Shown piece by piece: positions 24,556 to 58,589 of a stretch of 64,000 nucleotides of DNA. Under the pieces are notes generated by a model, which saw nothing but the letters and a program-made list of their open reading frames with translations, was not told the DNA's origin and ran no database searches. Every line of letters starts with the position of its first letter. Within the stretch, counting starts at the first letter, position 1. Both the position numbers and the translations under genes were made by a program. The stretch is from Candidatus Woesebacteria bacterium RIFCSPLOWO2_01_FULL_44_24b (GTDB taxonomy: Bacteria > Patescibacteriota > Microgenomatia > UBA8517): contig MGHM01000014.1 in the NCBI GenBank assembly GCA_001793235.1, forward strand, positions 3,857 to 67,856. The letters run 5' to 3'.

Positions 24556-24560
24556 CTATA

Positions 24561-40726: not shown

Positions 40727-41478
40727 AAATTAGCGCAATAATTATCGCCAAAGATGAGGAGGCAATGTTGCCTGATTGCCTTAAGTCCTTGGATTGGGTA
40801 GACGAAATATTGGTTGTAGACACCGGCTCTTTTGATAAAACAGTTGAGATTGCTAAAAGACATAAAGCCAGAGTAGTGGAATATAGAAATGGAAAGAATT
40901 ATTCGGATTGGAGAAACAAGGGTTTGGAAGAAGCGAAAGGCGAGTGGATTTTTTACGTTGATGCCGACGAGCGCATACCAATAAACCTTGAAAAAGAAAT
41001 TTCAACGATACTAAAAAACAAAAACAGTTTGAATGCATATGCTGTTGCGAGACGCAATTTTGTTTTAGGGAAGGAATTAAAGCATGGCAGTCTTTATCCT
41101 GATTATCAAAAGCGGCTCTTTAAAAAGTCTGCTCTTAAAAATTGGAAAGGCGAGGTTCATGAAGAGCCTGAGTTTATCGGTGAGCTTGGCCATCTAGAAA
41201 ATCCAATGATTCATTATAAACATGAAACATTTTCCGAAATGGTGAAAAAAACAAATAAGTGGAGTGAGATAGAAGCCAAGCTTATGTTTGATGCCAATCA
41301 CCCACCAATGAATATTGCTCGGTTTTTATCTGCAATGGGCCGTGAGTTTTGGCAGAGGATGGTAGTTCACAAAGCATTTTTGGACGGAAAAATCGGGCTT
41401 ATTTATGGGCTTTACCAAGTATTTAGCAGATTTGTGAGTTACGCAAAGCTCTGGGAAATGCAACTGACGAAAAAATGA
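40705..41478 (+). CDS. family-2 glycosyltransferase (paralog of 38910)
   Basis: ISAIIIAKDEEAMLPDCLKSLDWVDEILVVDTGSFDKTVEIAKRHKARVV...FYVDADERIP. It shares the block order and C-terminal KLWEM with the 38910 gene. Confidence 0.75.
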   Translation: MERIMEVKISAIIIAKDEEAMLPDCLKSLDWVDEILVVDTGSFDKTVEIAKRHKARVVEYRNGKNYSDWRNKGLEEAKGEWIFYVDADERIPINLEKEISTILKNKNSLNAYAVARRNFVLGKELKHGSLYPDYQKRLFKKSALKNWKGEVHEEPEFIGELGHLENPMIHYKHETFSEMVKKTNKWSEIEAKLMFDANHPPMNIARFLSAMGREFWQRMVVHKAFLDGKIGLIYGLYQVFSRFVSYAKLWEMQLTKK

Positions 41479-42497: not shown

Positions 42498-44017
42498 AAC
42501 GGGAATATATGATTTTACTTTTTATTATGATTGTGGCTTTTGTTTTACGTAGTTTGTATATACGCGAAGGCGCCATAACTTTTACATATGACCAAGCCAG
42601 AGACGCATTTGTGGCAAGAGAGATAATAAATGGGGACTTAAAAATTCTCGGCCCTTCTGCCAACTCTTCCGGGCTTTACCATGGGGTAGCATATTTTTAT
42701 TTTGTCGCATTGGCTTACTTTTTGGGTGGTGGGAGCCCAATAAACGCGAGTTACTTATTGGTAATCTTCAGCTTACTGAGTATTCTTGTTGTTTTTTATT
42801 TTGCGAAAAACATTACAGGAAAAGTGGGTGTCGCTCTTCTGGCATCATTATTTTCTGCCGTATCATTCGAGTTTTCACAATATTCAACTTGGCTTTCTAA
42901 TCCATCGTTGGCAATCGTCACGGTCCCCGCACTTTACTTATCTGTTTGGATGTGGACCCGGAAGCAAGAAAACAAATGGAAATTTTGGGAAGTAGTTGCC
43001 GGCCTTACACTAGGGCTTTCAGTTCAAGCGGACGTTTTTCTCTTGTATCATATTGTGCCTGTGGTTGTTTGGCTTTGGCTAAATAAAAATAAGATTAAAA
43101 TCGTGCAAATCGGAAGGTTTATTGCTTCATCACTCATTGCTTTATCTACTATGATTTTGGTTGAGTTGAAATTTGGATTTCAAGGGGTGAAAGGGGCACT
43201 CGCCCTTGCAGGCGGAGGGGAAACAATGGCACAAGGAAAGAGATTTGGTGACTATGTTCTCTTATATCTTAACCAGTTAGGTGATATTTTCGCAAATAAT
43301 ATTTTTCCAATTAATATTTCTTATGGATCGTTAGTAGTATTTGCAATGGTTGTCTGGCTGGTGATTAGTTGGCTAAAGGCGAAAACCAAGGTTGACTTGA
43401 GATTGTTTTTGCTTTTATTTATCTTTTCGCACTCACTAGCTCTCCCGTTTGGAGGGGACAGTACACCATATTTAGGAGTGGGAATCGGGGCATCTGTGGC
43501 AGTACTTTCGGCTGTTGCTATGGTTGAATTTTCTAATCGAAATAAAATTCTAAGCTATACAATAATTTCGGTGATAATACTTGCCAATATTTTCGCGATA
43601 GTAACCAAAAACAACAAAGGTCAGGTAATATTTGCCGTGCAGGGGTCAAAACTCTTGCGTGATGAGCTGAAACTCGTGGACTATACGTATTCCGAAATGA
43701 ATAGTGAGCCGTTTGCTATTAATTCTCTTACAACTCCGTTGTATTTTAATACCCTTTGGTCTTATCTTTATAGTTGGTACGGCATGGAAAAATATAGCTA
43801 TGTTCCGACTTGGTACGGCAGAGACCAGACGGGGGCACCCGGTAACTTATTGGCCACAGATAAAATCAACAAAGCCCGTTTTTTCATAAAAGAAACCACG
43901 GAGTTTATTCCGTTTCAGTTTGTTGATGAGGCTCAGAATGAAGAGAGCGGAACATCGGAATTAATAGAGGAGCTTGCGTTTAACGGGATTGTTGTTCAAA
44001 AAAGAATATTAAAATGA
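42494..44017 (+). CDS. GT-C-type membrane glycosyltransferase-like protein (subfamily 2)
   Basis: FTYDQARDAFVAREIINGDLKILGPSANSSGLYHGVAYFYFVA is a paralog motif of 19978 and 25483. More than 11 TM helices. ATGA overlap. Confidence 0.55.
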   Translation: MKREYMILLFIMIVAFVLRSLYIREGAITFTYDQARDAFVAREIINGDLKILGPSANSSGLYHGVAYFYFVALAYFLGGGSPINASYLLVIFSLLSILVVFYFAKNITGKVGVALLASLFSAVSFEFSQYSTWLSNPSLAIVTVPALYLSVWMWTRKQENKWKFWEVVAGLTLGLSVQADVFLLYHIVPVVVWLWLNKNKIKIVQIGRFIASSLIALSTMILVELKFGFQGVKGALALAGGGETMAQGKRFGDYVLLYLNQLGDIFANNIFPINISYGSLVVFAMVVWLVISWLKAKTKVDLRLFLLLFIFSHSLALPFGGDSTPYLGVGIGASVAVLSAVAMVEFSNRNKILSYTIISVIILANIFAIVTKNNKGQVIFAVQGSKLLRDELKLVDYTYSEMNSEPFAINSLTTPLYFNTLWSYLYSWYGMEKYSYVPTWYGRDQTGAPGNLLATDKINKARFFIKETTEFIPFQFVDEAQNEESGTSELIEELAFNGIVVQKRILK

Positions 44018-44916
44018 GCAAAAGCATAACAGTGTCTGTTGTAATTCCCAACTGGAATGGGGCTCAGCTTCTGGCTAAGAATTTGCCCAGTGTTCTTAAA
44101 GCTAAAGAGAACCTTAAGAACAAAATAGTAGAGGTGATAGTTGTCGATGATGGCTCAGCCGATAACTCAATCGAAATTCTCAAGCAAAGCTTTAAAGATG
44201 TGAAGTTGGTTCAACACACGGCAAATCGGGGTTTCTCCGCGGCGGTAAACACCGGTGTTAGGTTTGCAAAGGGTACACACGTTTGCCTTTTAAACACCGA
44301 CGTGATTCCCTCACACTCTTTTCTGGACTCGGCTATAAATTGTTTCCGCGATGAGAAAGTGTTTGGAATCACTCTTCACGAAGAAGGTTACGGTCCTGCT
44401 GTGGGTTATTTTGATGGTTACTTCAAGCATAGTGGAGGTTCAGAGAGCGATGAAATCCAGGAGACTTTTTGGGCCAATGGTGGCTCAAGTATTTTCTCTA
44501 AAGCTATTTGGAAGGAGCTAAAAGGACTCGATGGTGAGCTTTATGACCCGTTTTATTGGGAAGATGTTGATTTGGGTTACCGCGCTCGCAAGAGGGGTTA
44601 CACACTGTTCTGGGTTCCGGAGGCAAAAGTTGTCCACGCTCACGAATCTGTTATTAACCAAAATAACTTCAGGAAAAAATACTTAAACATAATAAAAGAA
44701 AGAAATGAACTTCTTTTTATCTGGAAAAACATAACGAGCAAGAGACTTTTTAAGCTTCATCTTAAGGAGCTCTTCAATAGATTAAAGCGGCACCCGGGCT
44801 ACATCAGAGTTGTTTTCGCAGCAGCTTTGAAATGTGGGCTTGTAAGGAGAAGAAGAAACAGAGAAAAGCTTGAGGCAGTGGTTTCAGATGAGGCGGTTTT
44901 TGCAAAATTTTCGTGA
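44014..44916 (+). CDS. family-2 glycosyltransferase
   Basis: VSVVIPNWNGAQLL...EVIVVDDGSADNSIEIL...CLLNTDVIP...FWANGGSSIF...YWEDVDLGYRARKRGY. Confidence 0.75.
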   Translation: MSKSITVSVVIPNWNGAQLLAKNLPSVLKAKENLKNKIVEVIVVDDGSADNSIEILKQSFKDVKLVQHTANRGFSAAVNTGVRFAKGTHVCLLNTDVIPSHSFLDSAINCFRDEKVFGITLHEEGYGPAVGYFDGYFKHSGGSESDEIQETFWANGGSSIFSKAIWKELKGLDGELYDPFYWEDVDLGYRARKRGYTLFWVPEAKVVHAHESVINQNNFRKKYLNIIKERNELLFIWKNITSKRLFKLHLKELFNRLKRHPGYIRVVFAAALKCGLVRRRRNREKLEAVVSDEAVFAKFS

Positions 44917-44920
44917 GGTT

Positions 44921-45724
44921 ATGAAGTTATCGATAATAATCGTCAACTACAATACCAAAGATATAACGCTTGATTGTTTAATATCAATTGATAGATTTCC
45001 AGTTGATGGAAAGTTTGAAGTAATTGTCGTTGACAACGCTTCAACAGATAATTCCATAGATTCATTCGAAAAACTACGAGTTAAGAATTATAAATTGAAA
45101 GTAATCAAAAACGATTACAATTCGGGTTTTTCTAAAGCCAACAATATCGGAATTAAAAGCGCAAGTGGGGAGTATATATTTCTTCTAAATTCGGACACGA
45201 GGGTCCTGAAAAACAGTATTAACGAACTTATGGACTTTGCACAAACGCACAAAAATGTTGGCATAGTTGCGCCAAAACTCTTGAATGGAGATAATACCGC
45301 CCAGCCGTCGGTGTTTAAGTTACCCACACTTGCCCGGACCATTAGGCAATATTGGCTGGGAGAGGCGAAGCTGACGGATAAATATGTTCCGCAAGATTCC
45401 TCTCCCGTGAGTATTGAAGCGGCAGTTGGCGCAGCCCTTCTATTTACGCCGGCTGGTAGAAAAAAGGCCGGGCTATTAGATGAGCGCTATTTTATGTATT
45501 TTGAAGATCTGGACTATTGCAGGAAAGCGAGAGCTAAAGGACTTAAGATTTACTATCTGCCAAGTGCAAAAATAATCCATATTCATGGAGCAAGCGGTGT
45601 GAGTAGTTTGGCTCAGCGAGATAGATTAATTGCCTCGAGTAAAATTTATCATGGTGTTTTGGGTTATTATCTTTTGACCCTGATTATTAAAATCGGCTCA
45701 AAACTTGGCCTCGTCACCAAATGA
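44921..45724 (+). CDS. family-2 glycosyltransferase
   Basis: MKLSIIIVNYNTKDITLDCLISI...EVIVVDNASTDNS...IFLLNSDTRV...YFEDLDYCRKARAKGLKIYY. The ATG at 44921 follows the upstream stop and has GAGG 4 nt upstream. Confidence 0.75.
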   Translation: MKLSIIIVNYNTKDITLDCLISIDRFPVDGKFEVIVVDNASTDNSIDSFEKLRVKNYKLKVIKNDYNSGFSKANNIGIKSASGEYIFLLNSDTRVLKNSINELMDFAQTHKNVGIVAPKLLNGDNTAQPSVFKLPTLARTIRQYWLGEAKLTDKYVPQDSSPVSIEAAVGAALLFTPAGRKKAGLLDERYFMYFEDLDYCRKARAKGLKIYYLPSAKIIHIHGASGVSSLAQRDRLIASSKIYHGVLGYYLLTLIIKIGSKLGLVTK

Positions 45725-47133
45725 AAATCCTTCTGATAATTTTAACAATTACATTATTCGTGAGGGTGTTGTATCTCGGAGATAACTTATTTTTCGGATA
45801 TGAGCAGGGGAGAGACTTTTTAAAGCTCACCGAAATTGCTTCAGGAGACCCGGCTTTAATAGGGCCTAAGACTGATATTGACGGGCTTTTCCATGGTGCT
45901 TTTTCGTACTATAGCCTTTTACCATCCTTTATAATTTTCGGTGGCAACCCATATTTGGTCCTACTTTCTTTGATTCTCATTCATGTTGTCTCGGTGTACT
46001 TTCTTTATAAATTCGCCAAAGAGCTGAAGGGAAAAAAGTTTGCACTTTTGACCACCTTTGTATATGCAATTTCATACTCATCGGTAGTTTATGCTAGGTG
46101 GCTTAGTAACCCAAACTTAGTGCCGGCACTTGCAATATTTTTTCTATACTTTTTGCAAAGGGCAAAAAATAACAAAATGCTATTGGCGTTTGTAGCCCTA
46201 TTTTGGGCACTTATTTTTCACTTGCAAGTTATTGCATCGTTAATTTTACTATTGCCGGGGGCATATTTTGTCGTCACTAATAAATTATTAACCAAGCGCA
46301 ATCTCGTGCCCGTGGCCCTAGTTATTATCGGAGTACTAAACACATACTTGATCTTTAATTTCAAAAACGACAATATTCTATTAAATGGTTTAACCAACTA
46401 CTTGGATGGACCGGCACCAATAGTTCACGATGTCAAATTAGACGAGCTTAACAATGAAATTGTTGATGATTTTTTCCCTCAAAATAGAACCATGGCATTT
46501 GTATTGTTTTGGCTGGTGGTTGGAGTAAACATTATTGCAAGCAGACAGGATTTTGGCTCGCGCTTTATTTTAGTCTTGAGTTTTGCTGCGCCTTTTGTGT
46601 TTATTCTGCTGGGAGTCTCGCCACTTCGGCATCTTTTTATATTAAATCCTTTATTCACTTCACTGCTCATTGCCAATGCAGCATACTTTCTGTTTTCCAA
46701 GAGGCTAGCGGCATTGGCATTAATCACAATATTAATAGCATTTGCTGCTAATTTGACTACTATCTTTGCAAGACTTCCGGAAAGTAACAGGAATTTTATT
46801 TATCATGCCCAAAGTACATATCTTTCTGATATGGAAAATCTCGTTGATTATGCTTATAAAGATGCGGGTGGCGCGCAGTTTAGCTACGACTATTTTTCCG
46901 TGCCGTATTGGCATAACGATGCTTGGGAGTATATGTTTATGTGGTATGGGCAATGGCGATATGGCTTCCTGCCCGCTAAAAATAGGACAAAGGTGTACTA
47001 TGTATTTATTGAACCGGATGAAACCCAGCCGAAATATCAGGAAGATTGGTATGCTAAGTTATCCGCGGGAAGTGTGTTGCTTGACGAATATACTTCTGGC
47101 AAACTTAAAGTAGAAAAGCGAGGAGAAAAGTGA
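45721..47133 (+). CDS. GT-C-type membrane glycosyltransferase-like protein (subfamily 2)
   Basis: FFGYEQGRDFLKLTEIASGDPALIGPKTDIDGLFHGAFSYYSLLP. More than 11 TM helices. ATGA overlap. Confidence 0.55.
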   Translation: MKILLIILTITLFVRVLYLGDNLFFGYEQGRDFLKLTEIASGDPALIGPKTDIDGLFHGAFSYYSLLPSFIIFGGNPYLVLLSLILIHVVSVYFLYKFAKELKGKKFALLTTFVYAISYSSVVYARWLSNPNLVPALAIFFLYFLQRAKNNKMLLAFVALFWALIFHLQVIASLILLLPGAYFVVTNKLLTKRNLVPVALVIIGVLNTYLIFNFKNDNILLNGLTNYLDGPAPIVHDVKLDELNNEIVDDFFPQNRTMAFVLFWLVVGVNIIASRQDFGSRFILVLSFAAPFVFILLGVSPLRHLFILNPLFTSLLIANAAYFLFSKRLAALALITILIAFAANLTTIFARLPESNRNFIYHAQSTYLSDMENLVDYAYKDAGGAQFSYDYFSVPYWHNDAWEYMFMWYGQWRYGFLPAKNRTKVYYVFIEPDETQPKYQEDWYAKLSAGSVLLDEYTSGKLKVEKRGEK

Positions 47134-48827
47134 AAAAGAAAAGTGTAACAATATTTGTTGTCATAATTTTGGTTGCTTCATTTTTGAGGCTTTATAAATT
47201 GGATTCGTTCCCGGTTAGTATGTTCGGCGACGAAATGGATGTTGGCTATCAGGCTTACTCTGTTCTTAAAACAGGAAATGATTATTATGGTAATTTTATG
47301 CCATTGCATTTTCACTCACTGGCCGAATGGCGTACGCCGCTTTATATCTATTCTGTGGTTCCAACAGTAGCAATTTTTGGAATTTCACCTCTTGGAGTCC
47401 GCCTGCCTGCAGCCGTTTTTGGAATATTGGGAATTGTCGCCTTTTACTTTTTAGTCTCAGAGATTTCTAAAAAGTACCTAAATACTGACTACAAACTACT
47501 GGCTACTGTCGCAAGCTTCTTGCTTGCGATTAACCCTTGGCATATTCAGTACAGTAGGGCCGCGTTTGAAGTTACTGAGCTATTGTTTTTTCTAATTCTT
47601 GGTCTCCTTTTCCTTTTTAGAAGTTTTAAAAATGGCAAATTACTTTGGATTTCGGCTTTAGCCTTCGCACTTACCCCGTGGGTTTATAGCACTGCAAAGT
47701 TATTCACTCCACTGCTATTAGCCTTTTTAGTATTTGTTTTTAGGAAGGAAGTTTTTAGACTGCCGCGCAAATATTTAGTCTATGCTGTTTGTGCTTTAGC
47801 TCTTGTTGGTGGGCCAATCGCCTATAGCACGGTGTTTGGAGGGGGAGGACAGCGCTTTAGTTATATCAGTGTTTTTAGCGATCCTACAATTGAACACGAA
47901 GTTGGAGTTGCAAGGGATATAGACAGCTGGGGAAACTCACTTCCTTCACGCGCTTTACATAATAAGTTTGTTATTTGGTCAGAGGCAATTGCCGGAAATA
48001 TTCTCCAAAGTTACTCCACAAGTTTTTTGTTTGTTGATGGGGACCTGAATTTGCGTCATTCAATAGAGGATATGGGAATGTTTTATAAGCCTGAATTTTT
48101 TGCTTTACTTCTCGGAATTGTTTATTTCTTTAGCAGAAAGGCGGATAGTAAAATAAAATTGTTTTTCCTTTTCTGGCTTGTCGCTGGAGTTTTGCCTTCA
48201 GCGATAACGCGCGACGGAGGAAATCATGCTACTCGATTAATCCTTATCCTTCTTCCTCTCGTGTTCCTTATATCAAGTGGTGCGGTGTTTCTTTCAAAAA
48301 ATCGCGTTATCTTTTTCGCATACTCAATGTTGCTCCTTTTATTTTTTATTATCTATCAACACCAGTACTGGGTTCATAATCCCACTTATTCAGAGCGTTG
48401 GTGGCATTACGGTTGGGAAGAAGCGGTGGAGGCTATTAAATCAGTTGAGCAAGACTTTGATAAAGTCGTAATTTCTACCGCGGATGAGCCGCCATGGATA
48501 TTTTTTGCCGGAGCATATGAATACCCACCCGAAAAATGGCAGGCACAATTTCCATTGGAGCAAAAAGTAACTTTAGAGGGGTTTGGTGAGGTGTCGCACA
48601 TTGATAAGTTTTATTTCGGGAGCCCTGCCGGCTTACAAATGTATGATTGGGGAAAAGTGCTTGACAAGGAGATGCTCTATTTGGCTTCAATAAAGGAAGT
48701 TGGAGTGAACTTAATTCGCGAGCCCGAAAGAACTCCTGGAGACTTGGTGCTTTTAAAGTCGATTGCGTTCCCTTCAGGTGAACCAGCTTTCTACCTGTTT
48801 ACTGGAAGAAGAAGCGATGAAAATTAA
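47130..48827 (+). CDS. GT-C membrane glycosyltransferase, PMT_2/ArnT-like (tandem paralog A of 5)
   Basis: Loop-1 MFGDEMDVGYQAYSVLKTGNDYYGNFMPLHFHS with the DE motif, followed by RLPAAVFGILGIVAFYFLVSEI. About 12 TM helices and a C-terminal soluble domain of about 150 aa. ATGA overlap. Confidence 0.65.
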   Translation: MKKKSVTIFVVIILVASFLRLYKLDSFPVSMFGDEMDVGYQAYSVLKTGNDYYGNFMPLHFHSLAEWRTPLYIYSVVPTVAIFGISPLGVRLPAAVFGILGIVAFYFLVSEISKKYLNTDYKLLATVASFLLAINPWHIQYSRAAFEVTELLFFLILGLLFLFRSFKNGKLLWISALAFALTPWVYSTAKLFTPLLLAFLVFVFRKEVFRLPRKYLVYAVCALALVGGPIAYSTVFGGGGQRFSYISVFSDPTIEHEVGVARDIDSWGNSLPSRALHNKFVIWSEAIAGNILQSYSTSFLFVDGDLNLRHSIEDMGMFYKPEFFALLLGIVYFFSRKADSKIKLFFLFWLVAGVLPSAITRDGGNHATRLILILLPLVFLISSGAVFLSKNRVIFFAYSMLLLLFFIIYQHQYWVHNPTYSERWWHYGWEEAVEAIKSVEQDFDKVVISTADEPPWIFFAGAYEYPPEKWQAQFPLEQKVTLEGFGEVSHIDKFYFGSPAGLQMYDWGKVLDKEMLYLASIKEVGVNLIREPERTPGDLVLLKSIAFPSGEPAFYLFTGRRSDEN

Positions 48828-50094
48828 TCTTCGATATGTATTTATTGCGGCAATCATCTTTAGATTAATTTTAGCGCCTTTAGCCAACCATCCCGATGTC
48901 GGTAACCACATAGATTGGGGGATAAAATTTTGGGAATATGGGGCGAGTAAATTTTATGCTCCGGAAAGTAATGTTTGGGCGTTCACTTGGCCAAACCAGC
49001 CCCCGGGAACAATCCTTATTTTTGCAATTATTCGAAAAGTTTATGAGCTGATTTTTGGAATTTTCTGGGGTATAAATGTTGCTGTTCCGGCATTTCCTTC
49101 AGGGGTAGTTACTGCAATTGACAAGCATTTATACCTCATACTCCTCAAGTTGCCGGCAATACTCGCAGACCTTGGGATTGCCCACTTGATTCATCAGTTT
49201 CTTGCCAAAGGCAAATATTCTAAAGTTGCCAAATTTGGAGCAATATTATTTTTAGTTAATCCGGTTATCTGGTATAACTCATCAGTTTGGGGGCAGACCG
49301 ACTCAGTCATTAACTTCTTTGTAATTTTGAGTTTGTGGTTGTTGTTTAGGAATAAGCCTGTGCTTGCCACATTGAGTTTTGCTGTCAGCTTGTATATAAA
49401 AGTTTCACTGGTTATTTTTATTCCGATATTCTTGATTTTGTTTATTAAGAAATTTTCAGTAAAACAAGCCATTGTTTCACTAGTGCCCCCTTTGGCGGTT
49501 TTTGCTCTGCCAACCCTCCTTTTCTCTTTCCCCCACGAGCCGTTTTCATGGCTTTTGGAAATTTATAAAGTAAAGGTGTTAACAAATCAGCTTCAGGTGA
49601 TAACCGCAAATGCCTTTAATTTTTGGGGCATTTTTGAAGGACTTGCCCAGCGGCCTCACAGCCTCTCCCTCGGGCCGGTTAGTTACCAGACGTGGGGATT
49701 GGCCGCTTTTTTATTAGGTTATATACCACTTTTATATTGGTTGTGGAAAAATCCCAAAGCTAAAACTGCAATATGGGTATTGGCGCTTGCCTCTTTTGGC
49801 TCTTTCATGTTTTTGACCAACATGCACGAGCGCTACCTCTACCCGCTGTTTCCTTACTTAACAATTCTTACCGCCATGAGTCCAAGACTGCTACCGCTTT
49901 ACGCGGGCATCAGCGGTGTTAGTTTAATTAATCTTTATAATCTCTGGTTTGTGCCGAGGTTTGAGTTTATCGTTATCTTGCTTTCAGCTGGAAAGGGAGT
50001 GGCTGTCAAGCTTTTGTCGGCTGTCAATACCGCACTTTTTCTAATTATATATCAAAACTTTTTAAAGGCGCGCCAAAAACGTATAATTAGTTAA
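48817..50094 (+). CDS. polytopic membrane protein (DUF2029/GT87-like mannosyltransferase-type topology, uncertain)
   Basis: About 11 TM helices. It lacks the DE loop motif of its neighbours. It is inserted within the tandem PMT_2 array. ATG at 48817. Confidence 0.4.
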   Translation: MKINLRYVFIAAIIFRLILAPLANHPDVGNHIDWGIKFWEYGASKFYAPESNVWAFTWPNQPPGTILIFAIIRKVYELIFGIFWGINVAVPAFPSGVVTAIDKHLYLILLKLPAILADLGIAHLIHQFLAKGKYSKVAKFGAILFLVNPVIWYNSSVWGQTDSVINFFVILSLWLLFRNKPVLATLSFAVSLYIKVSLVIFIPIFLILFIKKFSVKQAIVSLVPPLAVFALPTLLFSFPHEPFSWLLEIYKVKVLTNQLQVITANAFNFWGIFEGLAQRPHSLSLGPVSYQTWGLAAFLLGYIPLLYWLWKNPKAKTAIWVLALASFGSFMFLTNMHERYLYPLFPYLTILTAMSPRLLPLYAGISGVSLINLYNLWFVPRFEFIVILLSAGKGVAVKLLSAVNTALFLIIYQNFLKARQKRIIS

Positions 50095-51740
50095 TGAGGA
50101 ACTGGAAACTCGTAGTTGTTGTGTTGTTGGCGTTTTTATTGAGGTTTGTAAATTTAGCTTCGTATCCAGCCGGTTTTTCCGCCGATGAGGTGAATCAAGG
50201 CTATACAGCCTATTCAATTTTGAAAACGGGCAAGGATGAGTGGGGTGAGCCCTTTCCTGTTGCCCCGCGCTCCTACGGTGATTACCGCGCACCACTTTAC
50301 ACTTATTTGACAGTTCCCTCAGTTGGCATTTTTGGCTTAAATGAATTCGCGACCCGCCTGCCGGCTGTAATTTTCGGCACCTTGTCAGTTGCAGTTGTTT
50401 ATTTTCTGGTGCGTGAGTTATTTAAGGAAAAGGGCGAAAAATTGGCAGTCATTGCATCATCTTTGCTTGCGATTTCCCCATGGCATGTTGCCTTGTCCCG
50501 GGGAGCATTTGAGCCCAATTTACCGACTTTGATTATTCCTCTTGGAGTTTTGTTCTTTTTGAAAGGCAGAAAGCAAAAAAATTATATGTTAGCTGCAGCT
50601 CTTAGTTTGGGCTTAGGGCTATTTTCTTACTATTCATTCAGGCTGCTTTTCCCCGGAATTTTATTTCTACTCTACATTTGTTTCAGGTCAAATATTCTCA
50701 GGTATAAATTGCCTCTTGTAGTACTTGGCCTGTTCACTGCGATTGCCATCTACACTATGTTTGTAGGCGCATCTTCGCGCCTGCTGGATGTGTCTATTGC
50801 AGGGGAGTCCTCGTGGCACGCTGTTTCTGAGGCCCGGTATAATGCGGTTTTAATGGGTCTTCCCGATTTGCTAGCGAGGGTGTTTAACAATAAATTAACT
50901 TATTTGGCGAGTTTGTTTACCAAAAATTATTTAAGTTATTTTTCTCCTCAGTTTTTATTTACCAGTGGAGCAGGGGAGGCGACATATGGCATGGCTCCTG
51001 GGATGGGACTCATGTACCCACTTGAACTCCTGTTTATAGCTGCTGCATTAGTTCACACAATAGTTGGTAAGCTTTACAAAAAAACTTCTATAAAATTAAC
51101 TTTTGCGATGCTCATTATTGCGCCCATTCCGGCGGCGCTAGCCACGGGGCCCGGGATGGCCGCGAACAGGGCAGCGGTCATGTTACCATGGCTCACGATT
51201 ATTTCAGCAATCGGGATTTATGCAATCTTGAAAACTTTTTCTAAAAAATATATAGCCGTTTCCGTACTCCTCTATTTTATTGTTTCTCTGGTCTTTTTTT
51301 TGGAAAGTTATTATTACCACTCACCCCGTGACAACGCTCGATCTATGAGCTATGGCTGGCGGCAAGCTTCGGAGTACATAAGAAATGTTTACGATTCATA
51401 CGACAAGATTGTTGTAAGTGGAAATTTTTCAGAGCCACAGATGTTTGCAGCTTTTTTCATGGAAATTAATCCAGGAGTTGTTCAAGCCCAGTCCCTAGAT
51501 TGGCTAAGGTACGAATCTCAGGGGCTCAAATTTGTTGATCAATTGGGTGAATATAAATTGGATAAATTTGTTTTTAAGGGTATTGATAAAAGTGTTGATA
51601 CTAAGACTCCAAATACGCTAATCATGGGCAGGCCTGAAGATTTTATTGGCGTTACACCCGATCATGTTATTAACTATCCGGACGGCGAGGCAGCTATTTA
51701 TTTTGTTTCTTCGCGCGAAGTCTATGCAAAAGAAATATAA
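50094..51740 (+). CDS. GT-C membrane glycosyltransferase, PMT_2/ArnT-like (tandem paralog B)
   Basis: FSADEVNQGYTAYSILKTGKDEWGEPFPVAPRSYGDYRAPLYTY and RLPAVIFGTLSVAVVYFLVRELF. TAATG junction. Confidence 0.65.
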   Translation: MRNWKLVVVVLLAFLLRFVNLASYPAGFSADEVNQGYTAYSILKTGKDEWGEPFPVAPRSYGDYRAPLYTYLTVPSVGIFGLNEFATRLPAVIFGTLSVAVVYFLVRELFKEKGEKLAVIASSLLAISPWHVALSRGAFEPNLPTLIIPLGVLFFLKGRKQKNYMLAAALSLGLGLFSYYSFRLLFPGILFLLYICFRSNILRYKLPLVVLGLFTAIAIYTMFVGASSRLLDVSIAGESSWHAVSEARYNAVLMGLPDLLARVFNNKLTYLASLFTKNYLSYFSPQFLFTSGAGEATYGMAPGMGLMYPLELLFIAAALVHTIVGKLYKKTSIKLTFAMLIIAPIPAALATGPGMAANRAAVMLPWLTIISAIGIYAILKTFSKKYIAVSVLLYFIVSLVFFLESYYYHSPRDNARSMSYGWRQASEYIRNVYDSYDKIVVSGNFSEPQMFAAFFMEINPGVVQAQSLDWLRYESQGLKFVDQLGEYKLDKFVFKGIDKSVDTKTPNTLIMGRPEDFIGVTPDHVINYPDGEAAIYFVSSREVYAKEI

Positions 51741-53385
51741 CCACTATCTCTTGTTATTGATTTTACTGTTCAGTTTTTTTATCCGCATATGGAAAATCGA
51801 TGCTGCCCCGGCTTCGCTTAATTGGGATGAAGTGAGCCATGGCTTTAACGCCTATTCTATTCTCACAACAGGAAAGGATGAGTGGAGCGAGAGTTTCCCT
51901 GCAATCTTTCGAGCATACGGCGACTACAAGCTTCCGGTTTATGTTAACTTAGTTGCGATTTCTGAAAGTCTGTTTGGTCTTAACCCGTTTTCGGTGAGAC
52001 TGCCTTCGATATTGGCCGGTTGCATCACAGTTTTGTTTTCTTATCTTTTGGTGAAAAAACTATTTAAAAAAGAAGAAATTGCACTTCTTACAGCGCTTTT
52101 GGTAGCTATTGAACCCTGGAACCTGTTTTTGTCGCGCGCCGCGCTCGAAGCAAATGTTGCACTGGCATTGATTGTCTCTGGAGTATATTTTTTGTTATCA
52201 GGATTAGAAAAGAAAAATTGTTCTCTACTTTTGGGAATAGCATTGTTTGGCTTATCAGTCTGGACTTATAACTCTGCTCGTATTTTTATTCCTTTGTTGT
52301 TAATCGCTTTAACGTTAATTCATAAAACTGAATTCTATAAGATCGTAAAAAGTAGTAAATCCCTTGCTACATTCTACATGCTACTTGCTATTGTATTTTT
52401 AGTGCCAATGTTCATTCAAGTCAGTAGTGGAGTCGGATTGGCTAGATATGAAAGTGTTCAAATCTTAAACGACACCGCGATTGGCAGAATCGGGGAGTTA
52501 AGAAGTAATCTTAGTTTTGATGAGTCTGTAGAGAGATTGTTGTTTAATAAAGCTACATACTTTGCTGGCCAGTTTACGGTAAATTATTTAAAGCACTTCT
52601 CACCGGAATTTTTGTACTTAAAGGGCGGCGACAATTATCAGTTTAATATCCCGAATATTGGCCTTTTATATCTTGTGAATGCACCGTTTTTAGTTTTGGG
52701 TATTTGGAGACTTTTCAAACAGCATGGAGGAAAAAAGTACGGCAAATTAATTATTGCATGGCTTCTTATTGCACCAGTGGCTTCCAGTCTTACCGAGGGG
52801 GCTCCCCATACTTTACGGAGTATTGTGATGCTCCCAATTCCCATGATACTCACTGCCTTGGGTGCATCGTACGTCTTTAGTAGACTGGCAAAGTTTAGGT
52901 GGCTCTTTGTTGTTTTTGCGCTCCTGCTATTTGTGAGCTTTGCAGACTATTTTAATATTTATTTGAGTAGCTACAGAGTTAATTATTCATGGGTCTGGCA
53001 ATATGGGTACAGGCAAGCTGTTGACTTTATAAAAACGAATTACAATAAATATGAAAAGATAGTTATTACTAAAAAATATGGCGAGCCGCACGAGTTCGTA
53101 CTCTTTTACTGGCCTTGGGACCCTTCTCGCTTCCAAAATCAGGACAAGACCAGGTATTACCAGTCAAATTGGTATTGGGTGGATAAGTTCGATAAATTCT
53201 ATTTTGTGAATGATTGGGATATTCCAAAGGTTGGTTCAGAGTTTGCACTGGAAAGTGGTGGCACCTTTGATTGCGCCAGTTGTTTACTTGTGACAAGTCC
53301 TGGGAATGCGCCTGAAAACTGGAAGAAAATTGAGACGATAAATTTTTTAGACGGTAAAATCGCTTTTGAAATATATGAACACTAA
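51724..53385 (+). CDS. GT-C membrane glycosyltransferase, PMT_2/ArnT-like (tandem paralog C)
   Basis: NWDEVSHGFNAYSILTTGKDEWSESFPAIFRAYGDYKLPVYVN and RLPSILAGCITVLFSYLLVKKLF. ATG at 51724, with a 17 nt overlap. Confidence 0.65.
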   Translation: MQKKYNHYLLLLILLFSFFIRIWKIDAAPASLNWDEVSHGFNAYSILTTGKDEWSESFPAIFRAYGDYKLPVYVNLVAISESLFGLNPFSVRLPSILAGCITVLFSYLLVKKLFKKEEIALLTALLVAIEPWNLFLSRAALEANVALALIVSGVYFLLSGLEKKNCSLLLGIALFGLSVWTYNSARIFIPLLLIALTLIHKTEFYKIVKSSKSLATFYMLLAIVFLVPMFIQVSSGVGLARYESVQILNDTAIGRIGELRSNLSFDESVERLLFNKATYFAGQFTVNYLKHFSPEFLYLKGGDNYQFNIPNIGLLYLVNAPFLVLGIWRLFKQHGGKKYGKLIIAWLLIAPVASSLTEGAPHTLRSIVMLPIPMILTALGASYVFSRLAKFRWLFVVFALLLFVSFADYFNIYLSSYRVNYSWVWQYGYRQAVDFIKTNYNKYEKIVITKKYGEPHEFVLFYWPWDPSRFQNQDKTRYYQSNWYWVDKFDKFYFVNDWDIPKVGSEFALESGGTFDCASCLLVTSPGNAPENWKKIETINFLDGKIAFEIYEH

Positions 53386-55039
53386 CCGTTGGTTATTAGT
53401 TGTTATTTTAGTGTTAGCCGCAGTTTTGAGACTATGGCAATTGGGCGAGTATCCGATTCGCTTGACCAATGATGAAGCTGCGATTGGCTATAACGCATAT
53501 TCGATTTTAAAAACCGGCAAAGATGAACATGGAGCGGTATTGCCGGTTATTTTTAAATCGTTTGGTGACTGGAAGCCGGGACTTTATATTTATCTTACTG
53601 TGCCGTCGGTAGCAGTTTTTGGACTTTCAGAATTTTCAGTAAGATTGCCCTCGGCGCTGTTGGGAGTTCTGACGATACTATTGATTTATGAGTTGGCCAA
53701 AGAACTTTTTGATAAAAAGGTGGCCATATTTTCAGCCTTTTCACTTGCAGTGTTGCCTTGGCATATTCATTTTTCCAGAGGTGCCTGGGAGGCAAACTTG
53801 GCGTTAACTTTGTTGGTGGCCGGGACTTTGTTCTTTTTCAAGTCCTTTAAAAGTAAAAAAAATATTATCCTGTCTGCACTCTTTTTTGCCTTCTCCCTAT
53901 GGGCATATCAGAGTGCCAAGTTGGCGAGCCTGATAGTTTTGATAGGTTTGGGCATCTTCTACTATAAAGAAATTCTGAAGCTTGATAGAAAAAATCTTAT
54001 CATATCGGCTGTTCTTGGAATATTGATCTCTTTGCCAATTATAACCTCATTATTTACTGGTAAGACGGGAAGAGTGGAAGTAATGAGTGTTTTTTCCTAT
54101 ACACGCCCTCTGGAATATATCGAGAGTACTATCTTTGAGCAAGAAAATATTACGAGCCAGGACCCGGTTTATATTTTGTTTCATACAGAAGCCTTAAACC
54201 TTTTTAGAGGTGTAGCGGGAAGGTATTTAAACTACATTAGCGGCGATTTTTTATTTTTCAAGGGAGACTGGGCAAACCCCCGGCACACCTCTGTGGATAT
54301 GGGCTATTTGTTGTTCGTTAGTGTCGTTCCTCTTTTGCTTGGGCTTTATGTATTGTTTAAGTCAAAAGTTACTAAGGAAATCGGATTTGTGTTATTTTTG
54401 CTCGCTTTATCGCAAATACCTGCGGCCTTAACCCGGGACAGCGCGCATGGAGTGAGGTCTTTAGGAATGATTCTGCCCGTGTGCATTATATTGGGCTTGG
54501 GGTTAGCTAGACTGTATGATTTTATACTGAAGCAAAAGCGTATCGTTGGTTTGACTATAATATCCTTAACGTTTGCAGCGTATTTGTATAGTATGTGCCT
54601 TTACCTCGATGCTTACTTCGTTCAGAATAAGTATTCTGAACCCAAAGATTATTTTTACGGCTATAAGCAAGTGGTCGAAAGAGTTTTTGAGAGGGAAAAA
54701 GACTACAAAAGAATTATTTTTTCCCAGAGTTATGACCAGCCGTATATGTTCTTTTTATTTTATGGAGTAGGGCACGATGCTCGGTTCGCGCCAGAGGTGT
54801 TTCAAGGAAACACCACTTTTCAGGAAAGTCCAAGCGGCGACGTCGGCCTAATAACTCATCTGGGTGGTATTGAATTTATGCCGACTAATTGGTATGAAGA
54901 CCGTGGTGAAGAAAATACATTGTTTATAGGCCGACAAGAAGACTTTCCCCAAAGTGACATTGCGAGCGGTGAGTTTAATGTGGAATATATTAATTACCCG
55001 GATGATAAACCAGCCTTTGTATTATTAGACAGAAAATGA
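53366..55039 (+). CDS. GT-C membrane glycosyltransferase, PMT_2/ArnT-like (tandem paralog D)
   Basis: LTNDEAAIGYNAYSILKTGKDEHGAVLPVIFKSFGDWKPGLYIY and RLPSALLGVLTILLIYELAKELF. Confidence 0.65.
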   Translation: MKYMNTNRWLLVVILVLAAVLRLWQLGEYPIRLTNDEAAIGYNAYSILKTGKDEHGAVLPVIFKSFGDWKPGLYIYLTVPSVAVFGLSEFSVRLPSALLGVLTILLIYELAKELFDKKVAIFSAFSLAVLPWHIHFSRGAWEANLALTLLVAGTLFFFKSFKSKKNIILSALFFAFSLWAYQSAKLASLIVLIGLGIFYYKEILKLDRKNLIISAVLGILISLPIITSLFTGKTGRVEVMSVFSYTRPLEYIESTIFEQENITSQDPVYILFHTEALNLFRGVAGRYLNYISGDFLFFKGDWANPRHTSVDMGYLLFVSVVPLLLGLYVLFKSKVTKEIGFVLFLLALSQIPAALTRDSAHGVRSLGMILPVCIILGLGLARLYDFILKQKRIVGLTIISLTFAAYLYSMCLYLDAYFVQNKYSEPKDYFYGYKQVVERVFEREKDYKRIIFSQSYDQPYMFFLFYGVGHDARFAPEVFQGNTTFQESPSGDVGLITHLGGIEFMPTNWYEDRGEENTLFIGRQEDFPQSDIASGEFNVEYINYPDDKPAFVLLDRK

Positions 55040-56694
55040 AATTCCTTAATAAAAACACTCTATTAATTTTGATATTGGCTCTTGCCGCGGTGTTGCGGTT
55101 TTATAAACTTGACACCTACCCGGCGTTAAATGCGGATGAGGCGGCAATTAGTTATAACGTTTATTCATTAATTCAAACGGGCCAAGACGAGCACGGCAAT
55201 CCCTGGCCAATTCACTTCCAGTCATTTAATGATTACAAGCCGGGCGGATATTTTTACATTGTTCTGCCGTTTGTATGGGCGTTCGGCTTAAATGAATGGA
55301 GTGTCAGGCTGCCAGGGGCAATATTTGGAGTACTGACTGTACTATTTGTTTATCTTCTTGTGAAGGAATTGCAAAAATGGCAGCAATTTAAAATTTTAAA
55401 TTATAAATTTGAAATTATAGCTAGCTTCTTGCTAGCTATTTCTCCTTGGCATATCCATTTTTCCCGCGGAGGCTGGGAAGTAAATGCCGCGACTTTCTTT
55501 ATTGTTGTCGGCGTATATTTCTTTTTGCGGGCAATTCGCAATAACAAATATTTTGCTTTGAGCGCAATATTTTTTGTCCTGAGTTTATACACTTACCATG
55601 CGGCGCGAATAGTAACCCCGCTTCTCGGGGTGGTACTTTTGATTATCTACAGGAAGGACTTATTTTCAAGTGCCAATCGAAAGCTATTTTTGGGTTCAGT
55701 GATTTTAGGCGCTGTTCTTTTGGTTCCACTACTCACTAGTTTTGTTGGTGAAGCAAGCGCTCGAGCTTCAGGTGTGAGCATATTCTCTGACCGTGGATAT
55801 ATCGACAGGATAGAGGAAAAGCGAGCCAGGCACGAAGACCCTTTTTCGGTTCTCAATAGAATTCTTTATAATAAACCAAAAGAACTCGCCATTGAATTCA
55901 GCAAGAATTATTTCGAACATTTCAAAGGGGAATTTTTGTTTATATCTGGAGATGACATCGAGCGTAATAAAGTGCCGGAGTTGGGACAACTATATTTATG
56001 GCAATTTCCGATTCTGATTATTGCCTTGTATGCTATAAGCAAAAAAAGTAAGGGGTGGGGTTTGGTTTTGGCTTGGCTTGTTATTTCTCCAATTCCCGCG
56101 GCGCTGACTTTTCAGTCACCTCACGCACTTCGCGCTCAAAGCATGATTATCCCCCTAACTATTTTATCTGCATATGGTCTGACTGTCATACTGAAATTTT
56201 TAAATGAAAATATTCGCAAGAGAGGCATACTTACTACATGCTATATACTACTTACTACAGTATTAGGTTGGAGTTTTGCCCACTATCTTCACCAATATTA
56301 TGTTCACATGGCAAAAACGTATCCCTATTCCTCTCAATATGGGGTAAAAGAATTGGTGGAATATATGAACGAAAACGTAAACAACACTGAACCAATAGTG
56401 GTCACAACAAGATATGATCAGCCTTATATTTTATTCCTTTTTTACACTAAATTTGACCCTAAGCAGTTTCAAGGGCATCATATACTTACCGCACGAGATA
56501 AATATGGTTTCTCGACGGTACCTGCTTTTAATAATTACATTTTTAAGTCTATTAACTATAAAGATGAGGACAGAGATAAGTTCCCCGGCGCGATATTAGT
56601 GGGGACAGATGAGGAGATTCCGGACGCGGCTAATGTAATTAAGAATATTTATGGGAGCAATAATTATTTATATTTTCAAGTAGTTGCTAACTAG
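55036..56694 (+). CDS. GT-C membrane glycosyltransferase, PMT_2/ArnT-like (tandem paralog E)
   Basis: LNADEAAISYNVYSLIQTGQDEHGNPWPIHFQSFNDYKPGGYFY and RLPGAIFGVLTVLFVYLLVKELQ. ATGA overlap. Confidence 0.65.
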   Translation: MKFLNKNTLLILILALAAVLRFYKLDTYPALNADEAAISYNVYSLIQTGQDEHGNPWPIHFQSFNDYKPGGYFYIVLPFVWAFGLNEWSVRLPGAIFGVLTVLFVYLLVKELQKWQQFKILNYKFEIIASFLLAISPWHIHFSRGGWEVNAATFFIVVGVYFFLRAIRNNKYFALSAIFFVLSLYTYHAARIVTPLLGVVLLIIYRKDLFSSANRKLFLGSVILGAVLLVPLLTSFVGEASARASGVSIFSDRGYIDRIEEKRARHEDPFSVLNRILYNKPKELAIEFSKNYFEHFKGEFLFISGDDIERNKVPELGQLYLWQFPILIIALYAISKKSKGWGLVLAWLVISPIPAALTFQSPHALRAQSMIIPLTILSAYGLTVILKFLNENIRKRGILTTCYILLTTVLGWSFAHYLHQYYVHMAKTYPYSSQYGVKELVEYMNENVNNTEPIVVTTRYDQPYILFLFYTKFDPKQFQGHHILTARDKYGFSTVPAFNNYIFKSINYKDEDRDKFPGAILVGTDEEIPDAANVIKNIYGSNNYLYFQVVAN

Positions 56695-56695
56695 C

Positions 56696-57574
56696 ATGAC
56701 TAAACTTTCTGTGGTCCTTGCGACAAAAAATGAACAAGAAAATATTGGGCGGTGCCTTAAGTCGGTTAGAAGTATTGCCAATGAAATAATCGTGTTTGAT
56801 GAGTATTCAACTGATAAAACTCGCGAGATTGCGAAGAGCTTCGGCGCAAGAGTTTTTAAAGTTTCTCATGAGCCGATATTTCATATTACCAAACAGAAGG
56901 CAATTGATAAGGCCACCGGAGATTGGATTCTTCAGTTAGACGCGGACGAAGTAGTGACTCCTGAGTTGGCCAATGAAATAAAAGAAGTCTTAAGGATGTC
57001 CGATAGTGAGATCCTGAAACGAAAAGTGCCAGAGCTATTTATGCGGCACCAGAGGCTATTAGAAAGAGAGGGAAGCTTGCCCCAAGCGAAGTCCCGCCAA
57101 GCGGGACGAAGTGGGGTTGTGGCATTTTTTATTCCAAGACGCAATATGTTTCTGGGAAAACCCTTAATTCATGCAGGAGTTTACCCCGATCCTTCAATTA
57201 GATTGATTAAAAGAGGTAAGGCAAGGCTTCCCGGCAAGTCAGTCCACGAGATAATGGAGGTTGATGGGCAAGTTTCGTGGCTCGTGAACGATATGTTGCA
57301 CTACGACTCCCCCACTTTAGAGAGGTATTTAAATAGATTGAACAGGTATACTGATTTGCATGCAGAGGAGCTGAAAAGCAAAAAAGTAAAATTAAATTTC
57401 TTTAGTCTATTGAACTACTCTTTCGTTAAACCTACGATTGTTTTCTTTAAGTTGTATTTTCGGCACAGGGGATACCTGGATGGCATGAGAGGCTTTGTGT
57501 GGTGTCTGTTTTCTAGTCTGCATTTCCCGATTGCTTATTTTAAATATTATTCCAATGAAAAAAATCGCAGTTGA
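56696..57574 (+). CDS. family-2 glycosyltransferase (paralog of 38910 and 40705)
   Basis: LSVVLATKNEQENIGRCLKSVRSIANEIIVFDEYSTDKTREIAKSFGARVF...LQLDADEVV. The ATG at 56696 is 2 nt after the upstream stop. Confidence 0.75.
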   Translation: MTKLSVVLATKNEQENIGRCLKSVRSIANEIIVFDEYSTDKTREIAKSFGARVFKVSHEPIFHITKQKAIDKATGDWILQLDADEVVTPELANEIKEVLRMSDSEILKRKVPELFMRHQRLLEREGSLPQAKSRQAGRSGVVAFFIPRRNMFLGKPLIHAGVYPDPSIRLIKRGKARLPGKSVHEIMEVDGQVSWLVNDMLHYDSPTLERYLNRLNRYTDLHAEELKSKKVKLNFFSLLNYSFVKPTIVFFKLYFRHRGYLDGMRGFVWCLFSSLHFPIAYFKYYSNEKNRS

Positions 57575-58589
57575 CACACTACCTTTGGTTTCGGGGCATG
57601 CGGCACGGGGAATGGGTGTGTATGTCCGAAACCTCCTAAAGCACTTGAACAAAAAAGTAGACAGTTTCTTGTTTTTGGAAAACATGGATAAGCTTCACGA
57701 TTACGACGTTATCCATTACCCATACTTTGATCTTTTCTATCACACTTTGCCGATTGCGAAACAGGCAAAAACTGTTGTGACCATTCCGGATGTGACACCG
57801 CTTTTGTACCCCAAGTACTATCCACCGGGCTTAAAAGGGAGTATTAATTTCATCTTTCAGAAAATTGCTTTGAGAAATATAAATGCGGTGATTACCATAT
57901 CCGAAACTTCAAAAAAAGATATTGTTCGTTTTCTTAATATTTCAGCCGACAGAGTATTTGTAACCAAGTTGGCAAGTAATTTTAAAATAGTTAAGAAACC
58001 CGAGCAGTTTATATCTAAAGTTAAGTTACGATATAAATTACCAGATGAGTTTGTTTTATATATTGGGGATGTAAATTGGAATAAAAACCTGCTTCGATTG
58101 ATTAAAGCGGTTAAAAAAATAAATAGAACACTTGTGATAGTGGGTAAGAGTGCAGTGAACATAGATTACGATAAAAATCACATTGAAAATGCTCCTTTGC
58201 GGGAGATTCAGGAAAAATATGGGAAAGATAAAGAAGTCATGAGGCTTGGTTTTGTGCCGGACGAAGATTTAAATGCAATTTGGCAATTGGCCACGGTTTA
58301 CTGCATGCCTTCTTTATATGAAGGTTTCGGGCTTTCAGTAGTTGAGGCCATGGATGCGGGAGTGCCCTTGGTGTGCTCAAGAACTCAAGCTCTAGTGGAA
58401 GTTGCAGGTGACGCGGCCGAGTATTTTGATCCGTATTCTGTGGATGATATTGCGAGAAAACTTGCGAAAGTTATTTCAGATAAACAGCTACAAAAGGAAC
58501 TTGTTTTAAAAGGTAAAAGTATGGCAAAAGATTATTCCTGGCAAAAAACCGCAAAACAAACTTTAGAAGTATATGAAAGCTTACGCTAA
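57555..58589 (+). CDS. family-4 glycosyltransferase (GT-B)
   Basis: EGFGLSVVEAMDAGVPLVCSRTQALVEVAGD is the EX7E motif. ATG at 57555, with a 20 nt overlap. Confidence 0.8.
   Translation: MKKIAVDTLPLVSGHAARGMGVYVRNLLKHLNKKVDSFLFLENMDKLHDYDVIHYPYFDLFYHTLPIAKQAKTVVTIPDVTPLLYPKYYPPGLKGSINFIFQKIALRNINAVITISETSKKDIVRFLNISADRVFVTKLASNFKIVKKPEQFISKVKLRYKLPDEFVLYIGDVNWNKNLLRLIKAVKKINRTLVIVGKSAVNIDYDKNHIENAPLREIQEKYGKDKEVMRLGFVPDEDLNAIWQLATVYCMPSLYEGFGLSVVEAMDAGVPLVCSRTQALVEVAGDAAEYFDPYSVDDIARKLAKVISDKQLQKELVLKGKSMAKDYSWQKTAKQTLEVYESLR

Follow-up and report, generated by a model that had tools for sequence, protein, structure and literature searches.

Within a 64-kb window from the genome of Candidatus Woesebacteria bacterium RIFCSPLOWO2_01_FULL_44_24b (contig MGHM01000014.1), five genes on the plus strand (47130-56694), here called A to E, encode paralogous membrane proteins that are almost certainly GT-C glycosyltransferases of the PMT/ArnT/STT3 structural class. 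Each of the five has its own set of orthologs in related bacteria, and the order A-B-C-D-E recurs across several candidate phyla of the Microgenomates group. One-to-one orthology, conserved order and embedding in a conserved operon together indicate five fixed, non-redundant functions. We therefore propose that A to E probably represent five steps of one pathway that elaborates a single surface glycan.

Five diverged GT-C paralogs in tandem

The array consists of A (47130-48827, 565 aa), B (50094-51740, 548 aa), C (51724-53385, 553 aa), D (53366-55039, 557 aa) and E (55036-56694, 552 aa), all on the plus strand, and is interrupted between A and B by another plus-strand gene, X (48817-50094, 425 aa). 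An original prediction made from this DNA had placed five adjacent open reading frames (ORFs) of about 550 aa here, and all five proved to be paralogous over their full length. In the ORF listing for 47130-56694 on the plus strand, the five range from 548 to 579 aa and a 443-aa ORF follows the first. The longest ORF of C begins at 51646, which would produce an overlap of 95 nucleotides with its neighbor; the ATG at 51724, the start given in the original prediction, is the plausible one. In pairwise BLASTP comparisons, A to E are 28-36% identical over nearly their full length (E values of 1e-56 to 1e-92, far beyond chance), and they cluster apart from all other membrane proteins of the window. 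Because the five are only about 30% identical, a recent tandem amplification was rejected. Pseudogenes were also rejected, since all five ORFs are intact and retain their catalytic residues. A protein with 100% identity to paralog B is recorded as "hypothetical protein A2803_02565" in Candidatus Woesebacteria bacterium RIFCSPHIGHO2_01_FULL_44_21 (Patescibacteria/Microgenomates group), and the five-gene array is present in identical form on 19 metagenome contigs from different samples.

Profile searches place the five proteins in the GT-C class, at a distance from its curated members. In a Pfam hidden Markov model search, all five reached the gathering score of PMT_2 (PF13231, 26.1 bits), with A borderline (26.5 bits) and the others at 54.7 (B), 51.0 (C), 53.1 (D) and 30.7 bits (E); this bears out the predicted PMT_2/ArnT-like identity, and the fold comparison described below agrees. 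C (42.9 bits) and E (28.3 bits) also passed the cut-off of Pfam PMT (PF02366, 22.7 bits), for which no score was reported for A, B or D. None of A to E matched Pfam STT3, and TIGR04154 matched D alone, at 21.7 bits against a cut-off of 450. No NCBIfam model was reached at its cut-off by A to E, by X or by the ORF at 37249-38913 discussed below. All five scored best in NCBIfam with TIGR03663 ("flippase activity-associated protein Agl23"), reaching 29-47 bits where the cut-off is 126.25. The Pmt equivalog NF058602 matched only C (24.8 bits against 800), and the ArnT equivalog NF009784 gave 19.9 bits for C and 17.0 bits for D against 567, with no match for A, B or E. A to E are about equally distant from the PMT, ArnT and STT3 families. 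Homologs of the family carry automatic names only, such as "glycosyltransferase family 39 protein" or "phospholipid carrier-dependent glycosyltransferase". When 1.84 billion cluster representatives were searched with a profile, 6,173 had E values of at most 1e-30, which enlarges by about 6,000 sequence clusters (50% identity) a GT-C subfamily that lacks a curated model or a solved close relative.

A profile built from 64 family members gave only marginal matches to PDB sequences (STT3, E value 0.025; ArnT, E value 0.086), so a comparison of folds was needed. An AlphaFold2 model of B, built on the 64-member alignment, was confident, with a predicted local distance difference test score (pLDDT) of 93 and a predicted TM-score (pTM) of 0.91, and its structural neighbors include Pmt1-Pmt2 (6p25/6p2r) and EmbA-EmbB (7bvf). 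The model has the architecture of GT-C class A, with a multi-helix membrane core in which the first transmembrane helix (TM1) is followed by a long extracytoplasmic loop containing juxtamembrane helices. The Asp-Glu pair of B stands at the beginning of the helix that comes next after TM1 (model residues 30-45), which is where solved GT-C enzymes carry their catalytic acid. Both this acidic motif and the extracellular loop of GT-C enzymes have been described (PMC8035078, PMC11127046). Beyond the last membrane helix, each of A to E has a soluble part of about 135-155 aa, in keeping with the predicted C-terminal periplasmic domain of about 150 aa; in the model of B this part is an alpha/beta domain (residues ~416-548). 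Simple hydropathy segmentation gave overlapping, unreliable counts of transmembrane segments and was used for gross architecture only.

The alignment of A to E contains 45 invariant columns, including D34-E35, which directly follows the first membrane helix, R91-L92-P93, W137, S142-R143 and E147 (A numbering). The Asp-Glu pair (D31 and E32 in B numbering) is 96-100% conserved in all five orthogroups defined below and in 26 paralogs not assigned to any of them, and R88, R136, R229, R359 and Y179 (B numbering) are also ~100% conserved across orthogroups. The original prediction had made its assignment conditional on the invariance of this pair, which is borne out. The residues it singled out, the loop-1 DE and the RLP of the second motif, are indeed conserved; as written, however, both of its patterns were one position too long and literally matched none of the five proteins. 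With the spacing corrected, the strict loop-1 pattern matches B and D, and a relaxed form, DE...[GS][YF].[AV]YS[ILV][LI].TG.D, is found in all five paralogs and in none of 12 other large window proteins tested. In the second "DE" of loop 1 only the Asp is invariant, paralog A having DY. None of A to E contains "WWD", the core of the WWDYG signature of STT3 type (the ORF at 37249-38913 was not scanned for this motif), and an STT3-type oligosaccharyltransferase identity of the five was rejected on these grounds. Given the conserved residues, A to E are probably catalytically competent.

Divergence is unevenly distributed along the proteins. Loop 1 is 45% identical among the window paralogs and 48% identical between orthogroups, so that the predicted 50-60% was slightly too high, although the description of the five as diverged rather than recent copies holds. 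The loop at 233-305 and the C-terminal domain are only 23-27% identical between orthogroups compared with 36-42% within them, and residues specific to individual classes occur at positions 49, 63, 67, 299 and 358 (B numbering). This pattern is as expected if the paralogs share a common chemistry and differ in acceptor or linkage specificity, with specialization likely residing in their extracytoplasmic parts.

Orthogroups and conserved gene order

A scan of one genome per species yielded at least 590 relatives, and the best 78 loci were analysed. All 78 come from genomes of Microgenomates type (Woese-, Blackburn-, Davies-, Collier-, Ames-, Shapiro-, Curtiss- and Levybacteria). They contain 325 family members, mostly three to seven in a row, and for the cassette positions across loci the best match in the window was the paralog of the same letter, at 35-70% identity and well above the second-best match.

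A neighbor-joining tree of 288 full-length homologs (100 bootstraps) resolved five clades, each with a single window paralog and, for the most part, one member from each locus. Clade A comprises 87 sequences from 73 loci, clade B 57 from 56, clade C 54 from 48, clade D 40 from 37, and clade E 29 from 28. The exact clade was recovered in 99 of 100 bootstraps for E and 53 of 100 for D, compared with 24, 17 and 20 of 100 for A, B and C, respectively. These lower values arise because the 26 unassigned extra paralogs shift around the clade borders; the Jaccard index of the best-matching bootstrap clade was 0.95 for A, 0.95 for B, 0.90 for C, 0.93 for D and 1.00 for E. Mean identity among the 288 homologs is 40-49% within clades versus 29-35% between them. 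As judged from these sequences, the five orthogroups are well supported, though short of proven.

Gene order is conserved to a similar degree. Of the 63 loci with two or more classes, 57 follow the order A<B<C<D<E; the most frequent string is "ABCDE", and all five genes occur within a 10-kb flank in 20 loci. This conservation extends across Woese-, Blackburn-, Davies-, Collier-, Ames- and Shapirobacteria, with loci from more than 70 species representatives. Variants do occur: some lineages have a second A-like copy or a sixth, minus-strand paralog adjoining A, and a few have four genes and lack one class (e.g. L040, L045, L048 and L060), which suggests that the steps are separable. Since orthologs from different genomes are closer than paralogs within a genome, and since order is conserved, the sequence comparisons indicate that the duplications are older than the divergence of the Microgenomates candidate phyla and that gene order has been retained since.

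During this survey, we observed that many public metagenome-assembled genome records titled "uncultured Gammaproteobacteria bacterium" (L008, L009, L012, L015, L017-L019 and many others) bear the Microgenomates-type cluster. Their orthologs are 50-63% identical, and the titles are evidently placeholders or wrong taxonomy.

Operon context and a proposed pathway

The array is embedded in a longer run of glycan-related genes, whose conservation was assessed by matching all ORFs of the related loci to the window proteins. Upstream on the plus strand lie a Wzx flippase (Polysacc_synt by Pfam, syntenic in related loci; 35661-37286), the unannotated ORF at 37249-38913, a conserved block of three genes of glycosyltransferase family 2 (GT2; 38910-41478) and one of family 4 (GT4; 41475-42497), a PMT_2-like GT-C (42494-44017), two GT2 genes that directly precede A in most related loci (44014-44916 and 44870-45724), and a further PMT_2-like GT-C (45721-47133); both of these PMT_2-like genes, identified by Pfam as were the two GT2 genes, are missing from many related loci. 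Directly downstream of E, also on the plus strand, follow a GT2 (Glycos_transf_2 by Pfam; 56684-57574) that is syntenic in many loci, a GT4 (Glycos_transf_1, 109.6 bits, supported by synteny; 57495-58589), a second Wzx-type flippase (Polysacc_synt, 86.7 bits, syntenic in L035, L060 and L061; 58573-59814) and a GT2 that resembles polyprenyl-phosphate-sugar synthases (59792-60613, syntenic in L061, L062 and L064). The conserved order thus runs from Wzx and the ORF at 37249 through three GT2 genes, GT4, the optional PMT_2-like gene at 42494, two GT2 genes and the optional PMT_2-like gene at 45721 to A, X (variable) and B, and then, with a YfhO-like GT-C gene after B in many loci, through C, D and E to GT2, GT4, Wzx and the GT2 at 59792. 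All junctions between 45721 and 62547 are overlaps of 1-80 nucleotides, and the window shows no excess of promoter-like or terminator-like motifs; both observations are consistent with one long operon.

Gene X, described in the original prediction as a different membrane protein that interrupts the array, is itself GT-C-like. It has weak, sub-threshold Pfam matches to GT87, PIG-U and ALG6_ALG8, and individual homologs weakly match ALG3 and GT87. A profile of 32 X homologs drawn from the related loci matched PDB sequences of glycosylphosphatidylinositol (GPI) mannosyltransferase I (4e-10) and, over almost the full length, ALG6 (8e-8). X is found in most related loci at a varying position. On the basis of these matches, we assign X as a lipid-linked-sugar GT-C of a second structural class (PIG-M/ALG6/GT87 type, class B-like) rather than an unrelated membrane protein.

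The ORF at 37249-38913 is recognizable by its fold only, as an oligosaccharyltransferase-like GT-C with an AglB-like C-terminal domain. It is the sixteenth GT-C-like ORF of the window; the 15 recognizable by sequence make up 36.7% of its length, and glycan-related genes together make up 71%. The extraordinary density noted in the original prediction is therefore real, its count of about 14 being slightly low. Among these GT-C-like proteins are three tandem paralogs of YfhO/PTPS_related type (30519-35436, plus strand; 29-39% mutual identity by BLASTP, type from Pfam), which make up a second tandem array of GT-C-like genes; in many related loci one homolog is placed between B and C instead. In addition, the two optional PMT_2-like genes belong with two others (19978-21519 and 25483-27012) to a second, dispersed PMT_2-like subfamily of four plus-strand members that are 25-28% identical. 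Where A to E have DE...GY in loop 1, three of these proteins have [DE][EQ]GRD and the one at 42494 has DQARD.

The best NCBIfam matches of GT2 59792-60613 are ArnC-type, PgfS and PpgS models (39-48 bits against cut-offs of 370-529), making this protein a candidate maker of the lipid-linked donor. Three GT2s of ~235 aa beginning at 19275, 27598 and 29831 likewise best resemble ArnC, PgfS, PpgS and dolichyl-phosphate-hexose transferase, below the cut-offs. We read these three and GT2 59792 as each lying immediately 5′ of a GT-C gene. The other GT2s of the window appear to be of chain-building type, rhamnosyltransferase-like or SunS/MftF-like. Apart from the cassette, the three ~235-aa GT2s and their immediately downstream GT-C genes (19275-21519, 27598-29834 and 29831-32135, plus strand) look like classical synthase/GT-C modules.

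These components suggest the following pathway. Cytoplasmic GT2 and GT4 enzymes would build a lipid-linked oligosaccharide precursor, and the Wzx proteins would flip this precursor and/or lipid-phosphate monosaccharide donors made by the ArnC/PpgS-like GT2s. At the outer face of the cytoplasmic membrane, A to E would each add one defined residue or linkage, drawing the sugar from a polyprenyl-phosphate-linked donor by analogy with ArnT and with PMT enzymes acting on monosaccharides; the five steps would differ in linkage, position or donor. Further outer-face steps could be supplied by X, the YfhO-like proteins and the oligosaccharyltransferase-like GT-C. The product would end on a wall polymer, lipid or protein, possibly after transfer by the AglB-like 37249-38913 protein. 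The analysis shows that A to E are paralogs with a common fold and a conserved motif, that they form orthogroups, and that they are collinear and lie in the operon context described; the orientation of the enzymes, the donor type, their sequential action and the acceptor are inferred.

Several points weigh against this proposal of five fixed steps. Every functional assignment rests on homology and context, and the loci were chosen by similarity to A, which biases the sample toward cassette-bearing genomes. The exact-clade bootstraps of A, B and C are low, as described above. In addition, the synthase assignment of GT2 59792 falls far under the NCBIfam cut-offs, and only one conserved donor-synthase-like GT2 stands beside five GT-Cs, so these cannot each own a dedicated neighboring synthase. 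Finally, the co-occurrence of the genes and their translational coupling would fit a hetero-oligomeric complex equally well.

Such a complex is the main rival explanation: A to E, or pairs of them, might form an obligate machine like Pmt1-Pmt2 or EmbA-EmbB. Strict co-occurrence, overlap and apparent translational coupling of the genes would favor equal stoichiometry; the structural neighbors include these two heterodimers; and D and E, at 35% identity, are the closest pair. Nevertheless, four-gene cassettes without one class exist, and the complete catalytic motif in all five paralogs means that none looks purely structural. We regard an obligate complex as a minority possibility, compatible with five distinct steps rather than exclusive of them. 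It is quite unlikely that A to E are instead five protein-specific O-glycosyltransferases, each devoted to a different class of secreted or surface protein such as pilins, S-layer proteins or adhesins, in the manner of fungal PMT1/2/4 or animal TMTC1-4/TMEM260.

The original prediction had suggested a combinatorial surface or protein glycosylation system. In a combinatorial or diversifying system, A to E would be a variable toolbox whose membership and specificities differ by lineage and so create diverse surface glycans, as in O-antigen seroconversion by GT-C enzymes, a known strategy (PMC11127046). The paralogs have indeed diverged chiefly in an extracytoplasmic loop and the C-terminal domain, some lineages carry the extra copies described above, and 26 sequences fall outside the five clades. 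However, a combinatorial system would predict copy number, content and order that vary between lineages, and the opposite is seen. One-to-one orthogroups, a collinear arrangement retained across several candidate phyla within a conserved operon of glycosyltransferases and Wzx flippases, the higher identity of orthologs than of paralogs within a genome, and an unchanged array on contigs from different samples largely refute this interpretation, which we consider improbable. Least credible of all is the view that A to E are non-catalytic membrane proteins, such as Agl23-type flippase-associated factors, or degenerate enzymes: although the Agl23 model is their best NCBIfam match, its scores are far under the cut-off, and the catalytic Asp-Glu pair and several Arg and Tyr residues are conserved in every orthogroup. 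Five fixed, non-redundant steps therefore remain our preferred explanation.

A bolder extension is a deeply conserved, two-sided glycan assembly line in Microgenomates, in which a lipid-linked precursor is made by cytoplasmic GT2 and GT4 enzymes, flipped by Wzx, extended stepwise by A to E with contributions from the PIG-M/ALG6-like and YfhO-like GT-Cs, and transferred en bloc by the 37249-38913 protein to a protein or wall acceptor, with a logic that would parallel N-glycan synthesis in eukaryotes and archaea or arabinogalactan synthesis in mycobacteria. Taken as a whole this joint reading is speculative and rather unlikely. If true, it would represent a previously undescribed envelope glycoconjugate pathway, encoded by a conserved cluster of ~30 kb that occupies much of the window, although the complete genomes of this lineage among the related loci measure no more than 0.8-0.9 Mb. 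Members of the candidate phyla radiation combine very small genomes with surfaces that are largely uncharacterized, and their lifestyle is thought to depend on cell-cell contact. That the cassette has kept its order in several candidate phyla implies that selection for one elaborate, uncharacterized surface glycan is strong, and the five orthogroups, their oligosaccharyltransferase-like partner and the donor-synthase candidate give glycan chemistry, cryo-tomography and heterologous biochemistry something concrete to aim at.

The remainder of the window contains additional genes of note. The last gene of the operon in the window (60610-62547, plus strand) encodes a 645-aa protein without a Pfam or NCBIfam match, laid out as an N-terminal hydrophobic segment, an extracytoplasmic part of ~440 aa, two further transmembrane segments and a C-terminal part of 125 aa; in related loci reaching that far (e.g. 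L061), the region downstream of the cassette showed no homolog. At 6577-14470 (plus strand), rmlABCD (6577-9892) precedes genes for a PMT_2 GT-C, a polysaccharide deacetylase, a processive GT2 resembling PgaC/NodC (PgaC_IcaA, 112.7 bits, under the cut-off) and a GH18 chitinase-like protein, which may form a module for a chitin-like or poly-N-acetylglucosamine-like oligomer. Small secreted or pilin-like proteins are encoded at 221-4577 (plus strand), where an N_methyl pilin motif protein (742-1194) is followed by proteins of PA14-domain, VWA-like and CAP-domain type; they may act at the surface or in adhesion and could conceivably be glycosylated. The interval 21550-25553 (plus strand) encodes three paralogous DHH/DHHA1 phosphoesterases of 327, 326 and 330 aa, two of them adjacent and the third after a 211-aa ORF without a Pfam match. 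On the minus strand, only trmD and a 385-aa ORF without a Pfam match (14471-15145 and 18095-19252) were taken as genes, the remaining ORFs so taken being on the plus strand with mostly overlapping junctions. No tRNA or Rfam features were found in the window.

Comparison with known systems

Full-text literature searches turned up no account of a GT-C array from Microgenomates or Patescibacteria; Meheust et al. 2019 reported only membrane-protein families of unknown function that are enriched in Microgenomates. In Gram-positive bacteria it is established that a GT-A synthase can supply a donor which GtrA or Wzx flips and which a GT-C of PMT_2 type then uses (PMC8035078), and the scheme also operates in O-antigen modification (PMC11127046). 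By analogy, the components and predicted chemistry of the cassette match these multi-component transmembrane glycosylation systems (PMC8035078, PMC11127046). The Gram-positive three-component systems, whose PMT_2-type GT-Cs include GacL, GtlB/GttB, CsdD/CsdF, GtsC and YkcB, share with it a PMT_2-domain GT-C with an acidic extracellular-loop motif; in both, an adjoining GT2 resembles a synthase of C55-polyprenyl-phosphate (C55-P) sugars (PMC8035078), the GT2 of the cassette doing so at scores under the model cut-offs. They also share a flippase of Wzx or GtrA type, represented here by the two Wzx-type proteins, and modification of a glycopolymer outside the cell, which the gene content suggests for the cassette. 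In contrast, each module of the Gram-positive systems contains one GT-C and attaches one side-chain sugar, whereas the cassette combines five paralogous GT-Cs with at least three other GT-C types in one conserved operon, has no one-to-one synthase partner, and has no member that reaches a curated NCBIfam model.

Other systems resemble the cassette in arrangement or in logic. The mycobacterial embC-embA-embB genes form a tandem array encoding GT-C arabinosyltransferases. Together with AftA-D, they offer a parallel of lineage-conserved tandem GT-C paralogs with a C-terminal extracytoplasmic domain and, if our preferred reading of five steps is correct, of distinct, non-redundant outer-face steps in the synthesis of an envelope glycan from a polyprenyl-phosphate sugar. 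The lumenal enzymes of the eukaryotic endoplasmic reticulum (ALG3/ALG9/ALG12 and ALG6/ALG8/ALG10, followed by STT3) resemble the proposed pathway in their overall two-sided logic; however, the ALG genes are dispersed and belong to other glycosyltransferase families, and the cassette shows no sign of en bloc transfer to protein.

Resemblance to individual enzyme families is more limited. Compared with the GT39 protein O-mannosyltransferases (fungal PMTs, actinobacterial Pmt and the Caldicellulosiruptor GT39 enzyme), A to E miss the Pmt equivalog widely, lack a MIR domain and have a different, alpha/beta C-terminal domain. They are only 12-15% identical to ArnT (GT83), whose equivalog they match at no more than 20 bits; lipid A, the usual ArnT acceptor, is to our knowledge not expected in the Microgenomates group. 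What distinguishes the cassette from all of these systems is the presence of five old paralogs in fixed order, together with several other GT-C classes in the same operon, in a Microgenomates host.

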